A stretch of 64,000 nt of DNA from the NCBI GenBank assembly GCA_036012755.1, contig DASCPX010000127.1, positions 1 through 64,000 of the forward strand, given 5' to 3'. This DNA is from Myxococcota bacterium. GTDB taxonomy: Bacteria; Myxococcota_A; UBA796; CAJQPC01. Positions 57,390-64,000 of this stretch are shown in pieces. The notes below the pieces were generated by a model. The model was given only the letters and a program-made list of their open reading frames with translations. It made no database searches and had not been told where the DNA came from. Positions within the stretch are counted from its first letter, which is position 1; each line of letters begins with the position of its first letter. Position numbers and translations under genes: made by a program.

Positions 57390-58820
57390 ATGGTGAGCTG
57401 GCTCGCGGTCCCGCTGGTCGAGTGGCTCTTTGGCCTCGGCGCCTGGTCCCGCCCCGACACGCACGCCTTCCTCGTAGAGTCCCTCGGCTGGCTCGCCCTC
57501 GGTCTGCTCCATCGACGCGTCGCCAAGGAAGGCTGGGCCGCCTCGTTGGCCTGGGCCCCGGTGTTGTTGGTGTGGGCCTTCGTCGCTCGCTGGTCGTGGG
57601 TCGCCGGGGCCATCGGGCTTCCGGTGATGGTCGTGTTGGTGCGCGTGCTCGACGACGGCCTCCGTCGCTGGCCGGTCCTGCTGGTCCCGCTCCTGCTCGT
57701 CTCCGGCGGGACCGCGCGGCTCGTCGAGCTTGCCGCTGCGCCGGTGGCCGATCCTCTCGGAGAGCTGTGGCACCAGCTGCCTGATCGCAGGGTGGAGTCG
57801 ATCTCGGCCCCGCCGATCGTCCTGATCACCGTCGACACCCTGAGGGCGGACTCCCAGGCGACGATGGCGGCGTACAAGCGCTTCCCCGTGCGCTGGGACC
57901 ACGCCCTGTCGACCTCGTCGTGGACCGTGCCCGCCTTGGCGTCGGCACACACGGGCCTCCTCCCCGACGAGCACGGTTCCGGACGAGGAGCGTCGGGCTT
58001 CACCGCGATCCGGGCCGATGTGCCCACCCTCGCCGAGCTCCTGGAGGGCGAGGGCTACACGACGGCCGCCTTCGTCGCCAACCCCTTCGCCTCACGGCAG
58101 CTGGGCCTCGCCCGGGGGTTCGCGCGCTGGGACAACCCCGACGAGAACGCCCCCCACGGCTACGCGCTCATCGGCGGGGTCGAGGGTGACCCGCGGGACG
58201 CGACGCAGGTGGTCGACCGCGCCCTGACCTGGCTCGAGACGGACGCCCCGGAGCGCGGCTTCTTCCTGTGGGTCCACCTCATGGACCCACACTGGCCCTA
58301 CCTCGACCTCGGCCCCGAGGAGCTGCCTCGCCTGGTTCGGAAGGGAGAGACCCAGCTCTCCAAAAAGGACCGCCAGCGCTTCCGGCTCTTCTACGACGCG
58401 GAGGTCGAGCACGCCGACGCGGAGCTCCTGCGCCTGGTCCGGGGGCTGGAGGGCCACGGAGTCTTCGAAGGCGGCGTGCTGGTCCTGACCAGTGATCACG
58501 GCGAGGAGTTCTGGGAGCGCGGCGGCTGGGAGCACGGCCACGGCCACCAGCCAGAGGTCGTGGACATCGCCATCGGACTGTCCGCCCCGGGCTGGGAGCC
58601 CGCAGCGCGCACTGACACGGCGTCGCTGATCGACATCTTCGCCTGGGTGCGCGGCACGCCAACTCGGCCGGAGCGGGTCGTACAGGGGACCCTCTACGGG
58701 CCACAGCTCGAGACCCGGGTGGAGGGCTCGGTCCGCACGACAACCGGGTGGTCAGGAGTGGACGGCTCGGCGGTGGACGTGAACGAGGAGGCCCTGAGGA
58801 GGCTCGGCTACCTGGACTGA
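57390..58820 (+). CDS. Membrane-anchored sulfatase-like (alkaline phosphatase superfamily) protein
   Basis: N-terminal TMs; LITVDTLRAD, SSWTVPALAS, WVHLMDPHWPY, TSDHGEEF, HGH, LRRLGYL. Confidence 0.9.
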   Translation: MVSWLAVPLVEWLFGLGAWSRPDTHAFLVESLGWLALGLLHRRVAKEGWAASLAWAPVLLVWAFVARWSWVAGAIGLPVMVVLVRVLDDGLRRWPVLLVPLLLVSGGTARLVELAAAPVADPLGELWHQLPDRRVESISAPPIVLITVDTLRADSQATMAAYKRFPVRWDHALSTSSWTVPALASAHTGLLPDEHGSGRGASGFTAIRADVPTLAELLEGEGYTTAAFVANPFASRQLGLARGFARWDNPDENAPHGYALIGGVEGDPRDATQVVDRALTWLETDAPERGFFLWVHLMDPHWPYLDLGPEELPRLVRKGETQLSKKDRQRFRLFYDAEVEHADAELLRLVRGLEGHGVFEGGVLVLTSDHGEEFWERGGWEHGHGHQPEVVDIAIGLSAPGWEPAARTDTASLIDIFAWVRGTPTRPERVVQGTLYGPQLETRVEGSVRTTTGWSGVDGSAVDVNEEALRRLGYLD

Positions 58821-58826
58821 GCAAGG

Positions 58827-59180
58827 TCAGCATCGAGCACTCCTGCTGTGGTGGGCGACCGTGTCGACGAGGCCCCCGACGCAGACGCAGGGCAGCAAGC
58901 TGAGGATCGCAGCGACCAAGCCGAGCAGCGGATGGAACGCGATGGCCGCGAGGGTGCCGGCGAGGATGGGGGCGCCGACGACACAGAGGGTCACGGCGAG
59001 CCCCCGGTTCCGTCCGGCGGCGCAGCCCATCGCCAGGCCCAACAACGGCACGACGAGCACGCAGACGCCGAAGAAGAGGACCGCGTTCCCCAGGAAGTCG
59101 GAGAAGCCGGGGTAGGAGCAGCCGGCGAAGGCGGTGGAAGGGATGACCAACAAGGGGAGCAGGAGCGTCAGGCGTTTCAT
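58827..59180 (-). CDS. Small hypothetical membrane protein
   Basis: Signal-like leader plus about three hydrophobic segments; ATG 59180. Confidence 0.55.
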   Translation of the reverse strand: MKRLTLLLPLLVIPSTAFAGCSYPGFSDFLGNAVLFFGVCVLVVPLLGLAMGCAAGRNRGLAVTLCVVGAPILAGTLAAIAFHPLLGLVAAILSLLPCVCVGGLVDTVAHHSRSARC

Positions 59181-59221
59181 GCCTCGAGCCTCGCCGGGCC
59201 CCTTGAACACGACGCGACCTC

Positions 59222-62200
59222 TCAGTTGAATCCTGGTTGAACTCCCGCCTTCACCCCCAACATCACTGTCAGCGGCGCCACCGGCCGGGCACCGTAGGGG
59301 CGCCAGGAGCTCGCAGAGGTCCGGGAGCTCAGGTTCGACCCGGTGGCGTAGAGCGTGAAGCGACCCAGCGGCACGTGCAGACCGGCGTCGATCAGCAACA
59401 GGGCAGGGATGTCGGTGTCCGTGACCGGGAAGGTCCCCGCCGTGTCCAACATCCCGCTGCGAGCCGAGGCTCCGAGGGTGAGCGCCGCGCGCGGGTGATC
59501 CAGGGTGAGGCGAGCAGCCCCTGAGTGCTCGGGCACGTAGGGCAGGGAGTCTCCGATCTCGACGACTCCGAACTGGGGGAACTCGGAGGAGAAGCCCGTC
59601 ATGAAGCTCGAGCGGGTCCAGGCGTAGCTCGCGGAGAGCGGGATCTTCAGCTCGATGGGCAGGTTGATGACGAAGCCGCCCGTGAGCTCGGCGCCGTAGA
59701 TGCGCACCTCGCCGCCGTTGAACTCGAGGCCGACCTGGTCGCCGTTGCAGCCGCCCGAGAGCGTGCAGGGGCCGGTCAGGTTGTCGTAGTCGTTGTAGAA
59801 GCCGACGACTTCGAGCTCGCGCTCGGCGCCGTCGAGCCGAGCACCCGCCTCGTAGTTCCAGCTCGTCTCTGCCTCTACCTCCTCAGGCTGGCCGGGAGCC
59901 ACTGGAGAGAAACCACGGTGGACACCAGCGAAGACGTGGAGCTGATCGCCGACGCCATAGAGCGCCCCGAAGCCCGGCAGGACCGTGGTCCGGGTGAGGG
60001 CGGGGGCGGCCTCCGCGCCGACATCCAAGCGCTCACCGCGCACGACCTCGACGCGGGCGCCGGGCAACAGGTGGAGCTCGCCGATGCGCAGGTCTTCGTG
60101 GGCGTGCAGCGCCAGCGCCTGGGCGGTGGCGACGGAGTCCAGGGTCGTCTCCTGGCCGAGGCCGGACTCGACGAGCTCGCCCGAGGCCATGCCGTGAGGG
60201 ACCTCTGTGTGGAGGCGCCGCACGTTGTCGCCGTGAAGACGGGCGCCCAGCTCCAATCGGGAGCTGACGAGATCACCGGGGACGCTCCACGCCGCGGTGC
60301 TCTGGATCCCGAAGGCGTGGAAGGTCCGGTCGTTGGTGCCGATGAGCAGGACCTGGCCGTTGGTGTCCTCCTCGCCGCGCAGGATGGCCATGTAGACCGC
60401 CGCCTGGCCGCTGGTGGGGTCCGCCTCGATCAGGTCGTGCAGCTCCGGCCCGTCCTCGAAGCCGTTGAGCTTCGTCCACGACCGGGTCAGGTAGTGGTGG
60501 TAGGCGACGGTGCGCACCTCGAATGCAGAGGAGGGCTCCGCGTGCCAGGCGAGCTCGACCTGGGTCCGGGACAGGTCCATGAGCCCGGCCCCGCTGGCGG
60601 CATAGCGCCGGTAGGGCGAGGCCTCCAGATCGCTCGCCGTCAAGCCCAGGTAGGTCTCGTGGGAGACCTCGTCGGAGTAGCCCAGCTTCAGCTCCAGGCG
60701 ATGACTCGCCGAGGGCTCGAAGAAGCCCTTGACCATCGCCTCGTTCTTGTCGAAGCCGGTCGGCCCGCCGCCGTCGAGCTCCTTGAAGCCCTCGCTGCGC
60801 AGGTTCACGGCCTCTACCAGCAGCCCGGCGCGCCCTGACGAGAAGCCTCCGTAGGCGTGCACCTTGGTCGTTCCGTAGAGCCCCGCGGCAAGGTCGACCC
60901 GGGCATCGACGTCATCTGGCACGGCTCGTGTGCGCAGGTTGATGGCGCCACCCACGGTGTTCGGACCGTGGCGCGTCGCGGCAGGACCCTTGAAGACCTC
61001 GACCCCGACCAGCCGTGTGCTCATCGGGAAGTAGTAGGCGGATGGGGCGGCGTAGGGCGCTGGCGCGAAGAGCACGCCGTCCTCCATCAGCGTGACCTTC
61101 GCCGAGCGATCCGAGTTCGCGCCGCGCATGCCGATGTTGGGGCGGAGTCCGAAGCCGTCCTCGCTGCGGGTGGTGACCCCGGGCACGCCCTCGAGCACCC
61201 GCTCGATGTTGTCCTGCTCGAGGGCCTCGAGGTCCTCTTCTCCGACGACGTGGGCGCTGCCAGCGACCCGGGGCGTGCCGCGCTCGCCCTCGACGATGAT
61301 CGTCAGGCCGAACTCCTCGTCGTGGTCCTCGTCAGCTCGAGCGAGGCCCGGGACCAGCATCGCCAGGAGCAACAGGGGCAACAGCGCTCGGAAGGGGCCG
61401 AGCCAGGCCGAGATGAGGTTGTCGCCGTGGTTGCGCTCACCCTCTGGCAGGCCGAAGCGCTCACGCGGCTCACCGCTCAGCACCAGGGTGCCGGCGAGAC
61501 GATCCCAGATCGCCAGCCAGGTCCCCATGTTCTTGTGGGCGTCCTCTGGCGTGTGGTGGATCTGGTGCTGGGCCGGGCTGAGGAACCACCGCTCCACCGC
61601 GGGCGGAAAGCGCAGCCAGACGTGGCTGTGGCGCAGGTTGCCGAGGATGATGTTGAGGAAGAGCCCGATGGCCGGAATACCCAGGAGCTGCCAGGGCTCG
61701 GCGCGCTCGCGGAAGACGTAGAAGAAGACCGCCGTGATGCTGCCCGTGGCCAGAACGCCGCGGAGCTCGTAGAGCGCGGACTCCACCGGGTGGTTGCGGT
61801 GGAAGGTGAGCGGGGTGAGCACCTCCGCGCTGTGATGGACCTGGTGGAAGGCCCAGATCCATCCCACCCGATGCGCCAGGTAGTGCAGCACGAAGCGGCT
61901 GAAGTCCCAGCCCACGAACAACACGGCGGTGTAGAGCCCGACCACCAGCCAGGCAGGCCAGTCCGGGGCCTCCAGCACGCCGAAGCGGGCATCGAGCCCC
62001 CGCACGGCGTGGGTAGCCAACAGCCAGGCACCGCCAAGGCCCATGGCGCCGCGCAGCGTCCACAGCAGGCGCCGACCCAGGTAGAGCTGGACATCGAGCC
62101 GGGTGGAAGGGTGCTTCAGCGCAACGAGCAAGGGCGTCCGGTTGAAGACCGCGATGACGACCAGGCTCGCCAGGAGCGCCGGCCACCAGATCCGGCTGGC

Positions 62201-62263
62201 CGGATCGGTCAGCGGAACGAGCAGGCTGGTCCCTACCGAGGAGAGGGCCTCAGTCGTTGTCAC
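59222..62263 (-). CDS. Fusion: sterol desaturase/fatty acid hydroxylase domain + internal signal peptide + FecA-like TonB-dependent receptor
   Basis: His boxes HYLAH, HQVHH, LRHSH, HQIHH; RALLPLLLLAMLVPGLARA/DED; plug EDGFGLRPNIGMRG, LMEDGV..APY..YYFP, VEVFKGP..GGAIN; barrel HRGFSP, ETSWNYEAG, LPYVPE. Confidence 0.9.
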   Translation of the reverse strand: MTTTEALSSVGTSLLVPLTDPASRIWWPALLASLVVIAVFNRTPLLVALKHPSTRLDVQLYLGRRLLWTLRGAMGLGGAWLLATHAVRGLDARFGVLEAPDWPAWLVVGLYTAVLFVGWDFSRFVLHYLAHRVGWIWAFHQVHHSAEVLTPLTFHRNHPVESALYELRGVLATGSITAVFFYVFRERAEPWQLLGIPAIGLFLNIILGNLRHSHVWLRFPPAVERWFLSPAQHQIHHTPEDAHKNMGTWLAIWDRLAGTLVLSGEPRERFGLPEGERNHGDNLISAWLGPFRALLPLLLLAMLVPGLARADEDHDEEFGLTIIVEGERGTPRVAGSAHVVGEEDLEALEQDNIERVLEGVPGVTTRSEDGFGLRPNIGMRGANSDRSAKVTLMEDGVLFAPAPYAAPSAYYFPMSTRLVGVEVFKGPAATRHGPNTVGGAINLRTRAVPDDVDARVDLAAGLYGTTKVHAYGGFSSGRAGLLVEAVNLRSEGFKELDGGGPTGFDKNEAMVKGFFEPSASHRLELKLGYSDEVSHETYLGLTASDLEASPYRRYAASGAGLMDLSRTQVELAWHAEPSSAFEVRTVAYHHYLTRSWTKLNGFEDGPELHDLIEADPTSGQAAVYMAILRGEEDTNGQVLLIGTNDRTFHAFGIQSTAAWSVPGDLVSSRLELGARLHGDNVRRLHTEVPHGMASGELVESGLGQETTLDSVATAQALALHAHEDLRIGELHLLPGARVEVVRGERLDVGAEAAPALTRTTVLPGFGALYGVGDQLHVFAGVHRGFSPVAPGQPEEVEAETSWNYEAGARLDGAERELEVVGFYNDYDNLTGPCTLSGGCNGDQVGLEFNGGEVRIYGAELTGGFVINLPIELKIPLSASYAWTRSSFMTGFSSEFPQFGVVEIGDSLPYVPEHSGAARLTLDHPRAALTLGASARSGMLDTAGTFPVTDTDIPALLLIDAGLHVPLGRFTLYATGSNLSSRTSASSWRPYGARPVAPLTVMLGVKAGVQPGFN

Positions 62264-63362
62264 CGCTGGCTTCCCCGGGGACGGTCAGGACCAGGACGGT
62301 CACGAGGTCCCCCTTCAGGATGTCGGTGACGCCCTTCAAGGCCGCGTGCAGCGCCTCGACCTGTTCGGGCTGGGACTCGATGAGCTCGTCGAGGGGACCC
62401 TCGAGCCCCGCGGCGACGGCGATGGCGGCGTCGGTGTTGGCGAGGACCTCGTCGGAGAGGTCCCCGTGACCGATCTCTGCGAGGAGGTCGTCCATGCCGG
62501 CGCCCTCCCCTCCCGAGAAGAGCTCGCGGAAGCCGTCGAGGTTGGCCTCGATGGCGTCCACGCCGATGCCCGAGGCGAGGAGCTCGACGTCCTCGGCGCA
62601 GGTCGCCTCGCCGCAGTCGGAGAGACCCAGTGGCTTGGCCAGCTTCTCGTCCTTTGAGACCAGCTCGAGGTAGAAGAGCGCCGCGAAGACCTCGTCGAGG
62701 GCAGCTGGCTCGTAGCCAGCGGCCCAGCGCCCATCGAGCGCGGCTGCCTGCTGTCGAACACCGCCAGCGAGGGCGACGGCGAAGGCCGCGCGGTTTTCGT
62801 CCACCCCCTCGGACCCCAGCGCAGCCCAGTCCTCGTCGATGCCGACCTGGCTCGGACAGACCGTCTCCTCACCGGCGTAGAGCAGGTGCTCGAGCGCGTC
62901 CATGCCGTAGCTGTTCACGAGGTTCGCCTCGTAGAAGTCCCCCGCGTCCCACTCCTCTTCGACGGTCTCCTGGTCGACCCGGCAACCGTTCACGGTCGGC
63001 CAGGAGTAGATCTCGTCTCGGAGATCCTCGCCCCCGACCACCGTGACCGAGCTCCCCGCCGGTCCGACCTGCTGGACCTCCAGCTCCTCCCAGACGAGCA
63101 TCGCCGCGGTCCACGCGGGTCGGGCGTCCTCGCGAGCCCCGCCCGCCTGCCAGGAGGCCAGCGCCGAGTCGAGCTCGTCGAGCGAGGAGTCGAAGTCCGC
63201 CAGCGAAGGACGGACCACCTCTGGTCCCACAGCAGCGAGCGCCTCCGCCAGAAGGACATCAAGCGCGCCGCTGTCATCCCCACCCCTGGTGCAGGCCTGG
63301 GCTACCGCCAGGGCGCCCAGGATCCCGAGGAGCAGCCAGGAGCTACCAGCCGCCCTGGCCAC
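62250..63362 (-). CDS. Imelysin-family (peptidase M75/IrpA-like) lipoprotein
   Basis: Leader ending AQAC; W..LE..QVGPA, IYSWP, GMDALEHLLY, KDEKLAKPLG, C-terminal GDND; start GTG 63362 or ATG 63401. Confidence 0.82.
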   Translation of the reverse strand: MARAAGSSWLLLGILGALAVAQACTRGGDDSGALDVLLAEALAAVGPEVVRPSLADFDSSLDELDSALASWQAGGAREDARPAWTAAMLVWEELEVQQVGPAGSSVTVVGGEDLRDEIYSWPTVNGCRVDQETVEEEWDAGDFYEANLVNSYGMDALEHLLYAGEETVCPSQVGIDEDWAALGSEGVDENRAAFAVALAGGVRQQAAALDGRWAAGYEPAALDEVFAALFYLELVSKDEKLAKPLGLSDCGEATCAEDVELLASGIGVDAIEANLDGFRELFSGGEGAGMDDLLAEIGHGDLSDEVLANTDAAIAVAAGLEGPLDELIESQPEQVEALHAALKGVTDILKGDLVTVLVLTVPGEASGDND

Positions 63363-63999
63363 TGTCGTCTCCGAGGTTGGCAGGATCGAAGCCGTAGGCA
63401 TCGGCGATCAGCCCGCGGGCCTCCAGCAGATCCGCGACGTAGGCCTCGCGGACCTCGACCGGGGAGTCGGAGAGCACCGGAGCGATCCCCACCAGCTCGT
63501 GCAGGGCGGCGATGTCCGGATCGGTGATCTGGGAGCGTGGGTTGAACTGCAGCGAGAGCGCGAAGCCCTTCATCTCCGACCAGTGCTTGGCGTGGTCCTC
63601 GAAGGAGTAGTCGTCGCTGCCGATGCTCTCTGTGTCGACGATCACCTCGTTGACGTAGTGGACGACCGTAGAGGAGACCGACCTCTCCCAGGCGTCGATG
63701 GCCTCGTCGCGATGGCCCCGCAGCTCCTCCAGCTCATCCGCCGTCAGCTGGCGCCCGGAGCTCTCGGACAGCAGGGCACGTCCGGCGACGAAGCTCTCGA
63801 AGGCCTGGGCGCTGTAGTCCGTGCCGGAGACGCTGCCGAGGTCCCGCTTGGCGGCGTTGACGGAGTAGCCCCAGTTGTACTCGGCGGTCAGGTCGATGAA
63901 GCCGTCACCGTCGACGTCCTTGTAGCCAGGAGACTTGATCTCCTCGTCACTCCAGTCGCCGTAGGTCCGGGCCGCGCCGAAGTAGCCGAAGCCCTCGTC
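63343..63999 (-). CDS. DUF4856-like protein (C-terminal part; 5' end beyond window)
   Basis: Frame open to window edge; DEGFGYFGAARTY, VNAAKRD, VVHYVNE, AKHWSEMKGFALSLQFNPRS. Confidence 0.75.
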   Translation of the reverse strand, partial: DEGFGYFGAARTYGDWSDEEIKSPGYKDVDGDGFIDLTAEYNWGYSVNAAKRDLGSVSGTDYSAQAFESFVAGRALLSESSGRQLTADELEELRGHRDEAIDAWERSVSSTVVHYVNEVIVDTESIGSDDYSFEDHAKHWSEMKGFALSLQFNPRSQITDPDIAALHELVGIAPVLSDSPVEVREAYVADLLEARGLIADAYGFDPANLGDDSGQGGW

Positions 64000-64000
64000 C

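Follow-up and report, generated by a model that had tools for sequence, protein, structure and literature searches.

A membrane hydroxylase and a TonB-dependent receptor encoded as one protein around a predicted internal signal peptide

The window considered here is a stretch of 64,000 nucleotides (positions 1 to 64,000 of contig DASCPX010000127.1) from a Myxococcota bacterium, assembly GCA_036012755.1, whose source is described as a marine bacterium. On its minus strand, at 59222-62263, lies a single gene, FAH::TBDR, in which a membrane enzyme of the FA_hydroxylase family (FAH) is fused to a TonB-dependent receptor (TBDR) of the outer membrane, with a hydrophobic segment resembling a signal peptide between them. 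The fusion is confirmed as real and conserved. Its best reading, which we regard as probable, is that the product is a precursor polyprotein cut by signal peptidase I, and that the two halves act in one iron-acquisition pathway controlled by Fur.

The gene is one uninterrupted frame of 1013 codons plus stop, opening with GTG and stop-free throughout, as the listing of open reading frames (ORFs) and the translation bear out. The original prediction, made from the sequence before any search, had proposed an enzyme, a signal peptide, and a receptor in this order, and Pfam matched all three of the families named for checking. Residues 1-292 (61388-62263) comprise a di-iron inner-membrane domain of the FA_hydroxylase family, assigned from Pfam (PF04116 at residues 113-259, E 2.2e-22, 80.3 bits versus a cut-off of 31), invariant histidines, and an AlphaFold2 (AF2) model. 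Residues 293-310 (61334-61387) form the predicted internal Sec-type signal peptide, for which the evidence is of four kinds: the sequence itself; its conservation, measured against a control; homology to the signals of split receptors; and its absence from standalone hydroxylases. Residues 311-324 (61292-61333) hold, as read from the sequence, a predicted acidic mature start (DEDHDEEFG) and the TonB box (LTIIV, 320-324); the D311 codon begins at 61333, exactly where it had been placed. The plug follows at residues 333-440 (60944-61267; PF07715, E 1.1e-13, and a match to the FecA plug), and the β-barrel at residues 549-978 (59330-60619; PF00593, E 1.5e-27).

Contigs from two other samples cross the junction with no stop or frameshift: one of 3163 nt from run X5 spans 59200-62201, and one of 3023 nt from run X6 spans 60981-62300, both with 0 differences and 0 gaps. 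(These samples differ from the possible source samples but belong to the same two studies; in runs X8 and X10, from other studies, parts of the gene are present and 61280-61903 is uncovered.) In a collection of 5.8 billion proteins, all three domains occur in 118 of the 120 best homologs, which are 985-1102 aa long and 49-75% identical to the fusion; of the other two, one is the window's own protein in truncated form, and the other a gene call, P0051, that starts inside the signal. Since the bridging contigs show no differences and the best homologs are built alike, the fusion is not an assembly error. The G+C content of third codon positions (GC3) is 0.90 over the entire frame.

The same architecture is widespread in the phylum. 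Matches at E <=1e-30 were found in 150 of 401 species-representative genomes, including all 11 other genomes of the window's family, and the junction lies in one open frame at 22 of 29 loci. At the remaining seven, either the halves are adjacent and not in one clean frame (three loci: one in-frame TAG, two frame changes) or the receptor stands alone (four loci). The close homologs are thus mostly fused, rather than all split. Standalone receptors of other phyla, used only as an outgroup, were examined at 38 loci (22-45% identity), and none has a hydroxylase relative within 6 kb.

Some relatives carry defects: an in-frame TAG in the enzyme half of G197 (L052); a barrel frameshift in G050 (L056); and a frame change at the junction in G014 (L079) and G337 (L078). 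These may be decaying copies or sequencing errors. The window's own genome holds two further related frames. On contig C18 (4087-4695; L002, L004), a single frame of 238 codons is 72% identical to fusion residues 817-960 and 47% identical to residues 641-697, with the intervening part missing; it looks like the remnant of a second copy. On contig C119 (21882-22469; L003) there is a paralog of the enzyme half, a standalone FA_hydroxylase gene of some 305 codons; it is 33-38% identical to residues 74-277, and no receptor is nearby within the locus examined.

Unlike the usual TonB-dependent receptor, whose signal is N-terminal, the receptor in the window has its signal at residues 293-310, behind a 292-residue membrane domain. 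Signal peptides handled by Sec and signal peptidase I consist of a basic n-region, an h-region of about 7-15 residues, and a c-region with small residues at -1 and -3. The junction reads R292, then ALLPLLLLAMLVPGLARA (ending at residue 310), and, beyond the predicted cut, DEDHDEEFGLTIIVEG. Here R292 would be the n-region, ALLPLLLLAMLV the h-region, and PGLARA the c-region, with signal peptidase I predicted to cut after A310; A308 and A310 are the small residues at -3 and -1. The motif LTIIV, which we take from the consensus to be the TonB box, begins after only nine further residues. Homologs have motifs of the TIIV, EILV, or LIVY type after an acidic linker of varying length.

These features recur across the family. 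Junction statistics were compiled for 111 of 121 proteins (ten were dropped: two too short, and eight without the anchor motifs). A small-x-small site stands at the end of the hydrophobic core in 108 of the 111. Among those 108, Ala occupies -1 in 96 and -3 in 83; the +1 residue is Glu, Gln, or Asp in 76; and a basic residue (Lys or Arg) stands before the core in 107. Median values are 17 residues for the uncharged h-plus-c stretch and -6 for the net charge of the first 15 mature residues. One point tells against these figures: the site picker was a custom rule that favours A-x-A. A control was needed for this reason, and the identical procedure was run on four other transmembrane segments of the same 111 proteins. 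A-x-A followed by Asp, Glu, or Gln occurs at 61 of 111 junctions versus 0 of 111 at each of the four control helices, and plain A-x-A at 75 junctions versus 25, 0, 3, and 3. The stretch between cut and plug varies widely in length among homologs, as would be expected of an unconstrained mature N-terminus. Together, these sequence patterns support a signal peptide at the junction rather than a plain membrane anchor.

Relatives in which the two genes are separate reveal to which half the hydrophobic segment belongs. In two genomes of one genus (G147 and G177), receptor and enzyme are far apart, and the receptors begin with Met and a signal peptide exactly at the position of the internal signal. 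In G242, the flanking genes are those of its congener G202, minus the enzyme half and the DUF4856 and imelysin genes that accompany it (see below); its receptor begins with MLPVLALLLQSSPVWA followed by QAPS, directly behind a Fur-box-like site. The unlinked, standalone receptor of G392 also starts with M and a signal peptide at the homologous place. In G112 the genes are neighbours in different frames: the enzyme stops just short of the place where the signal would begin, and the receptor has its own signal. Conversely, of the three standalone hydroxylases in the alignment (G147, G177, and G112), none has a hydrophobic tail, and the segment therefore belongs to the receptor half. The original description of residues ~293-310 as a type I signal with an A-x-A site has accordingly held up on three counts: the c-region motif is conserved; the segment is homologous to the N-terminal signal of split receptors; and split hydroxylases lack it. 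(In G147 and G177, the receptor, at L074:1613-7679 and L076:10197-15996, sits beside a lamin-tail-domain protein and a TRAP-T transporter comprising TAtT, DctP, and DctQM.)

The history of the junction was traced with a maximum-likelihood tree of 47 receptor halves, built by a quick IQ-TREE search with SH-aLRT support only and with 14 standalone receptors of other phyla as outgroup. In this tree, 25 fused and all 7 split forms make up one clade (SH-aLRT 98). The two deepest branches of the clade are fused, and every split form stands beside fused relatives. This placement implies that the fusion is ancestral in the lineage and has been undone at least five times.

On the minus strand, the fusion follows two other genes of a conserved cassette, DUF4856-imelysin-FAH::TBDR. 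The 3' part of the DUF4856 gene occupies 63343-64000; the whole gene (contig C127 63343-64722) starts outside the window and encodes 459 aa. Its Pfam match (E 4.7e-9, 36.1 bits versus a cut-off of 22.3) is accompanied by 42-59% identity to DUF4856 genes of related cassettes. The imelysin (Peptidase_M75) gene, at 62250-63401 (PF09375, E 5.7e-21), has a stop that overlaps the GTG start of the fusion by 14 nt, and its product has a Cys right after the N-terminal hydrophobic core (AVAQAC, lipobox-like but non-canonical). Among the short loci, imelysin adjoins the enzyme in 24 of 25, and among the long ones in 18 of 19; the exceptions are one locus that ends at the enzyme, and G177. DUF4856 is upstream of the imelysin-enzyme pair in most loci.

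A Fur box, GATATTGATATTCGTTTTC, lies at C127 64736-64754 (L072:736-754), 14 nt upstream of the DUF4856 ATG and just outside the window. Of the 19 positions of the classical 19-mer it matches 15, a score reached nowhere else in the 63,964 positions of the 32-kb region around it; the consensus applied is the familiar one of E. coli. The site forms an AT-rich island in DNA of 69% GC. Similar sites accompany related cassettes: at 14 of 19 loci, the single best Fur match of the locus (12-17 of 19) falls in a 360-base stretch around the point where the first cassette gene starts; two loci tie the best score with one other position; one has a 12/19 match with five equals; and two have none. Five variant-cassette loci have sites of 14-15 of 19 on the upstream side of the cassette. 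Given the position of the fusion as third gene in a putatively Fur-controlled cassette, both products would be made when iron is scarce.

Neither the EfeU/Ftr1 permease nor EfeB turned up beside the fusion in the window or in the 171 neighbour ORFs scanned at 22 loci. Those 171 ORFs likewise include no conserved conventional inner-membrane iron transporter (a FecCD permease occurs in one locus). Among the conserved cassette proteins, only the hydroxylase belongs to the inner membrane. It keeps to the cassette in four arrangements: as a fusion with the receptor; as a fusion with imelysin; as a separate gene behind the receptor, with a TGATG overlap; and beside DUF4856-imelysin, the receptor having moved away. 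The overlapping case, G275 (L105:7316-10326), has the order imelysin, receptor, hydroxylase, with the receptor stop overlapping the hydroxylase start. This suggests translational coupling, in an order reverse to that in the window.

The same enzyme subfamily also carries other passengers. A profile of the enzyme half matched 1,235 cluster representatives at E <=1e-30 among 1.84 billion. From the top 150 profile matches, 51 of at least 361 residues were chosen by eye for an architecture scan, and 98 shorter ones were left out. The full FAH::TBDR fusion accounts for 20 of the 51 (one more, P0059, was already known from the homolog search), and a truncated form with enzyme and plug only for another 4. 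The enzyme is fused to imelysin in 6 (P0249, P0256, P0263, P0273, P0308, and P0292), to a periplasmic solute-binding protein (SBP) in 3 (P0288, P0316, and P0359, one of them partial and weak), and to a di-haem cytochrome c peroxidase in 3 (P0353, P0365, and P0366). One protein adds a weak protease-prodomain match, and 14 consist of the enzyme alone. The imelysin fusions occur repeatedly: their clusters comprise 10-13 members, and contigs that bear them reach 3.4 Mb in some cases. Moreover, FAH::imelysin frames are uninterrupted in two further families of the phylum (L103:1871-3916 and L104:8914-10998), in both cases with a Fur box upstream and a receptor gene downstream.

The type of signal at these junctions depends on the passenger. 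All six FAH::imelysin representatives have a lipobox and Cys (LVIVAC, LLLVGC, LLLSC, ALAAGC, LLTATC, and ISAMQC, the last, from P0256, being non-canonical), as do both genomic cases (ALTATC and LLLGGC). Type I sites are found in all three peroxidase fusions and in one of the two full-length fusions to a solute-binding protein; the other has a lipobox. Signal type thus follows passenger type, which would not be expected of a mere anchor. The original suggestion that the desaturase-like protein works in metal uptake also gains support at this point: from the Fur box, from the DUF4856-imelysin cassette, and from the fusions to three further exported classes.

The hydroxylase half retains the metal-binding residues of its family. 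The FA_hydroxylase family is marked by a di-iron His-box motif (HX3H, HX2HH, HX2HH), and its His boxes face the cytoplasm. All four boxes predicted within residues ~1-292 are present, as the Pfam match and an alignment of 29 sequences attest: H127/H131; H140/H143/H144; H212/H214; and H233/H236/H237. In that alignment H127, H131, H140, H143, H144, H158, H233, H236, and H237 are invariant, and H212 is conserved at 90% or more. With all His ligands invariant, a working di-metal centre is likely, to judge from the sequence. Lys- and Arg-rich segments (41-73 and 211-292) flank the His boxes, and the short loops 95-103 and 189-195 lack positive charge, as read from the sequence and the AF2 model, a distribution in keeping with the positive-inside rule. 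The subfamily has an extra N-terminal helix and a conserved C-terminal motif, RNHGDDLxSAWxGP. NCBIfam gave a weak match to the lipid hydroxylase OlsE (E 1.9e-4, far under the cut-off).

The AF2 model of the enzyme half is a confident one (pLDDT 89.9), with one helix, 283-303, that runs into the signal segment. Scs7p was the top structural match in both searches made with it, and a weak one (Foldseek E 0.46, TM 0.32/0.37; VIA Z 4.8, rmsd 5.0, 168 residues aligned). Foldseek against the PDB returned nothing at E <=0.001, and the wide VIA search nothing at Z >=5. With structural matches this weak, structure adds little to the Pfam assignment.

Among solved structures, the receptor half is closest in sequence to the FecA plug (E 5.9e-19). 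The NCBIfam FecA equivalog model, NF041676, scores only 77.3 bits versus a cut-off of 1100, so the protein is not a FecA orthologue. Pfam detects no N-terminal signalling domain in it.

These observations suggest a route for the two products. Residues 1-292 would form a polytopic inner-membrane enzyme whose His-rich parts and C-terminus are cytoplasmic. The segment 293-310 would then insert N-in/C-out, like a free N-terminal signal, and start translocation of everything behind it; the fusion would be tolerated because the hydroxylase has its C-terminus in the cytoplasm, the side on which any signal peptide has to start. The receptor would thus arrive at Sec as the tail of the hydroxylase, and signal peptidase I would cut after A-R-A(310) at the periplasmic face. 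The released protein of 703 residues, with N-terminus DEDHDEEF, would take the normal route to the outer membrane, and the hydroxylase would stay in the inner membrane, keeping the signal peptide as an extra C-terminal helix. Release seems obligatory, because the nine residues between cut and TonB box are too few, given the width of the periplasm, for a tethered receptor to reach the outer membrane. Both products, made under iron scarcity, would serve one iron-acquisition pathway. It is in this sense that we infer cleavage, the final locations of both products, and the role of the enzyme.

Several facts weigh against this precursor model. Its central step, cleavage, is deduced from sequence patterns. 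The site picker found nothing in 3 of the 111 fitted homologs and could not be applied to 8 full-length ones, for want of an anchor. In some homologs an acidic or Pro-rich linker exceeds 100 residues, long enough in principle to span the periplasm uncut. The C-terminal signal of an outer-membrane barrel normally ends in an aromatic residue, and this protein ends in PGFN, with a non-aromatic last residue. The enzyme half resembles the Scs7p fold only weakly, and its alignment, used as a profile against PDB sequences, gave 0 matches at E <=1. In the tree, one fused protein, L092 (G139:C27), groups with an outgroup receptor, the standalone one of Thalassotalea (support 90); gene transfer, an independent fusion event, or an error of the tree could account for this. 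Finally, having been reversed several times, the fused state is perhaps nearly neutral.

That last point leads to the alternative that survives best, though we think it unlikely: the precursor is cleaved, but the fusion is a neutral read-through of neighbours, and the hydroxylase does lipid chemistry unrelated to iron. The return to split genes in at least five lineages fits such neutrality, and the weak resemblance to OlsE fits ordinary lipid chemistry. Moreover, the hydroxylase of G177 stands alone with no imelysin nearby, and related imelysin-TBDR cassettes in G230 and G215 lack a hydroxylase in the region examined. The persistence of the enzyme with the cassette through four arrangements is harder to square with this idea; the upstream Fur box is conserved as well, and the three further partner classes are all of kinds found in iron-uptake systems.

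There is a slim chance that no cleavage occurs. The hydrophobic segment would then be a fifth membrane helix, and the protein would either span both membranes or hold a receptor-like domain tethered at the inner membrane. The long linkers of some homologs, the AF2 helix that continues into the segment, and the fact that a tether would be workable for periplasmic passengers (imelysin, peroxidase, and solute-binding protein) can all be read this way. The window's own linker is too short for it, however, and A-x-A with an acidic +1, so sharply enriched over the control helices (61/111 versus 0/111), would be pointless in a plain anchor, as would a lipobox Cys kept in imelysin fusions. The segment is absent from standalone hydroxylases and serves standalone receptors as N-terminal signal. 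Nor do we know of any way in which a 22-strand barrel could fold in the inner membrane.

Alternatively, the receptor could be made separately from an internal start just upstream of the signal, so that the fusion would matter little for it. We consider this very improbable. In-frame ATG, GTG, or TTG codons were catalogued in 26 fused genes: a candidate falls within 20 codons of the signal in 20, two of which (L085 and L063) also have a motif upstream that resembles a Shine-Dalgarno (SD) sequence, and the database call P0051 begins inside the signal. The candidate codons have no conserved position, however; six of the 26 genes have none within that distance, and Met occurs near the signal in only 9 of 108 fused proteins. 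The window's only candidate, a TTG two residues into the h-region and without SD, would yield a signal lacking its n-region. Translation of the receptor from an internal start, which the original prediction had named as a way to be wrong, thus finds no conserved start or SD motif to support it. (Sigma-70-like promoter sites and terminator-like sites inside the gene numbered 0 and 0, uninformative at 69% GC, where shuffled sequences gave 0.0 and 0.9.) An artefact or pseudogene created by a lost stop or frameshift in this assembly has a negligible probability: some relatives are indeed defective (G197, G014, G337, and G050), but contigs of two other samples are identical at the junction, nearly all of the best homologs are fused, GC3 is high throughout the frame, and the catalytic histidines are invariant.

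Candidate roles of the enzyme can be ranked tentatively. First comes an O2-dependent di-iron oxygenase that would act on a membrane-embedded substrate as part of iron acquisition, the role that we favour; second, an inner-membrane iron-handling step; third, unrelated lipid chemistry. A bolder proposal is possible but doubtful. The hydroxylase subfamily may be a dedicated inner-membrane component of Fur-controlled imelysin/TBDR uptake, a functional counterpart of the EfeU permease, perhaps with an iron-accepting or iron-releasing step at the cytoplasmic face; it may also define a class of bacterial export polyproteins in which a polytopic carrier in the inner membrane is relieved by cleavage of its passengers, namely an outer-membrane barrel, lipoproteins (whose internal lipobox would be processed by Lgt and LspA), and periplasmic proteins.

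Other genes near the fusion deserve brief mention. Directly downstream, at 58827-59210 on the minus strand, is a gene for a 127-aa membrane protein that may be the last of the operon. It has no Pfam or NCBIfam match and no tblastn match in any related locus, and was dropped as a candidate for a conserved cassette member. Convergent with the operon, at 57390-58820 on the plus strand, a 476-aa membrane protein combines a hydrophobic N-terminal part with a sulfatase/phosphodiesterase domain, and may be an enzyme of the lipid-headgroup transferase type. In three related loci, Oar-like receptors (PEGA or CarboxypepD_reg plus plug; one also with TonB_C) lie just upstream of the cassette: L077:1106-3952, L078:215-2857, and L084:4592-6952.

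These results bear on protein export and on iron uptake. As the trailing part of a membrane protein, the receptor is probably brought to the Sec channel during its translation. The internal-lipobox fusions imply that the lipoprotein pathway can act on a signal that is not N-terminal; all lipoprotein signals known to us are N-terminal, and no paper on internal-lipobox processing surfaced in literature searches that were aimed at the fusion rather than at internal lipoboxes. About 1,200 cluster representatives are annotated as 'TonB-dependent receptor', 'Fe(3+) dicitrate transport protein', or 'sterol desaturase family protein', names that hide both the architecture and the iron context.

The closest precedent in design is FbcH of Bradyrhizobium japonicum, a precursor that is reported to be cleaved post-translationally at an internal signal. 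There, too, one frame encodes a polytopic inner-membrane protein and, after it, an exported protein with its own internal signal. Fusion of cytochrome b to c1 is documented for Bradyrhizobiaceae (PMC4986455). The two systems differ in that both FbcH products stay at the inner membrane in one complex, whereas the passenger of FAH::TBDR is an outer-membrane barrel; moreover, the hydroxylase carrier is found with passengers of four classes, and its junction signals include both the type I and the lipoprotein kind. In E. coli, according to the part of the report available, a signal peptidase I site engineered behind an internal transmembrane helix of a polytopic protein released a periplasmic passenger (PMC5449189).

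Each half also has well-known relatives. The receptor resembles FecA in its plug and barrel, TonB box, and putative iron regulation, and many homologs are named 'Fe(3+) dicitrate transport protein' by JGI. It differs in its internal signal, and in having imelysin and DUF4856 rather than fecBCDE as neighbours. The enzyme shares with the PF04116 proteins Scs7p and OlsE a profile match above the cut-off and complete His boxes; the extra N-terminal helix and the RNHGDDLxSAWxGP motif set the subfamily apart. No PF04116 member linked to Fur or iron uptake was found in the literature searched. That literature, subscription journals and supplementary files aside, also contains no description of an FAH::TBDR fusion or of a link between hydroxylase and iron, in keeping with the earlier remark that no characterised example was known; a Tenacibaculum genome paper and a Caulobacter cold-shock paper each touch only one of the two themes.

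The cassette as a whole recalls the imelysin clusters, namely EfeUOB and the outer-membrane-type operons of Xu et al. (2011). Here, too, imelysin belongs to a putatively iron-regulated operon, and some relatives have a di-haem peroxidase; the difference is that neither EfeU/Ftr1 nor EfeB was seen among the neighbours scanned. In the available part of Xu et al. (PMC3143127), EfeU is absent from the outer-membrane-type operons, and that part mentions no hydroxylase or desaturase. Imelysin systems of this type are, on that account, without a known inner-membrane partner, and the di-iron membrane enzyme is a concrete candidate, by gene order, Fur box, and four independent kinds of fusion. Set beside the systems that were found, three things are new: an outer-membrane barrel as passenger; one carrier with four passenger classes and both kinds of signal; and an enzyme family linked to a putatively Fur-controlled imelysin cassette.

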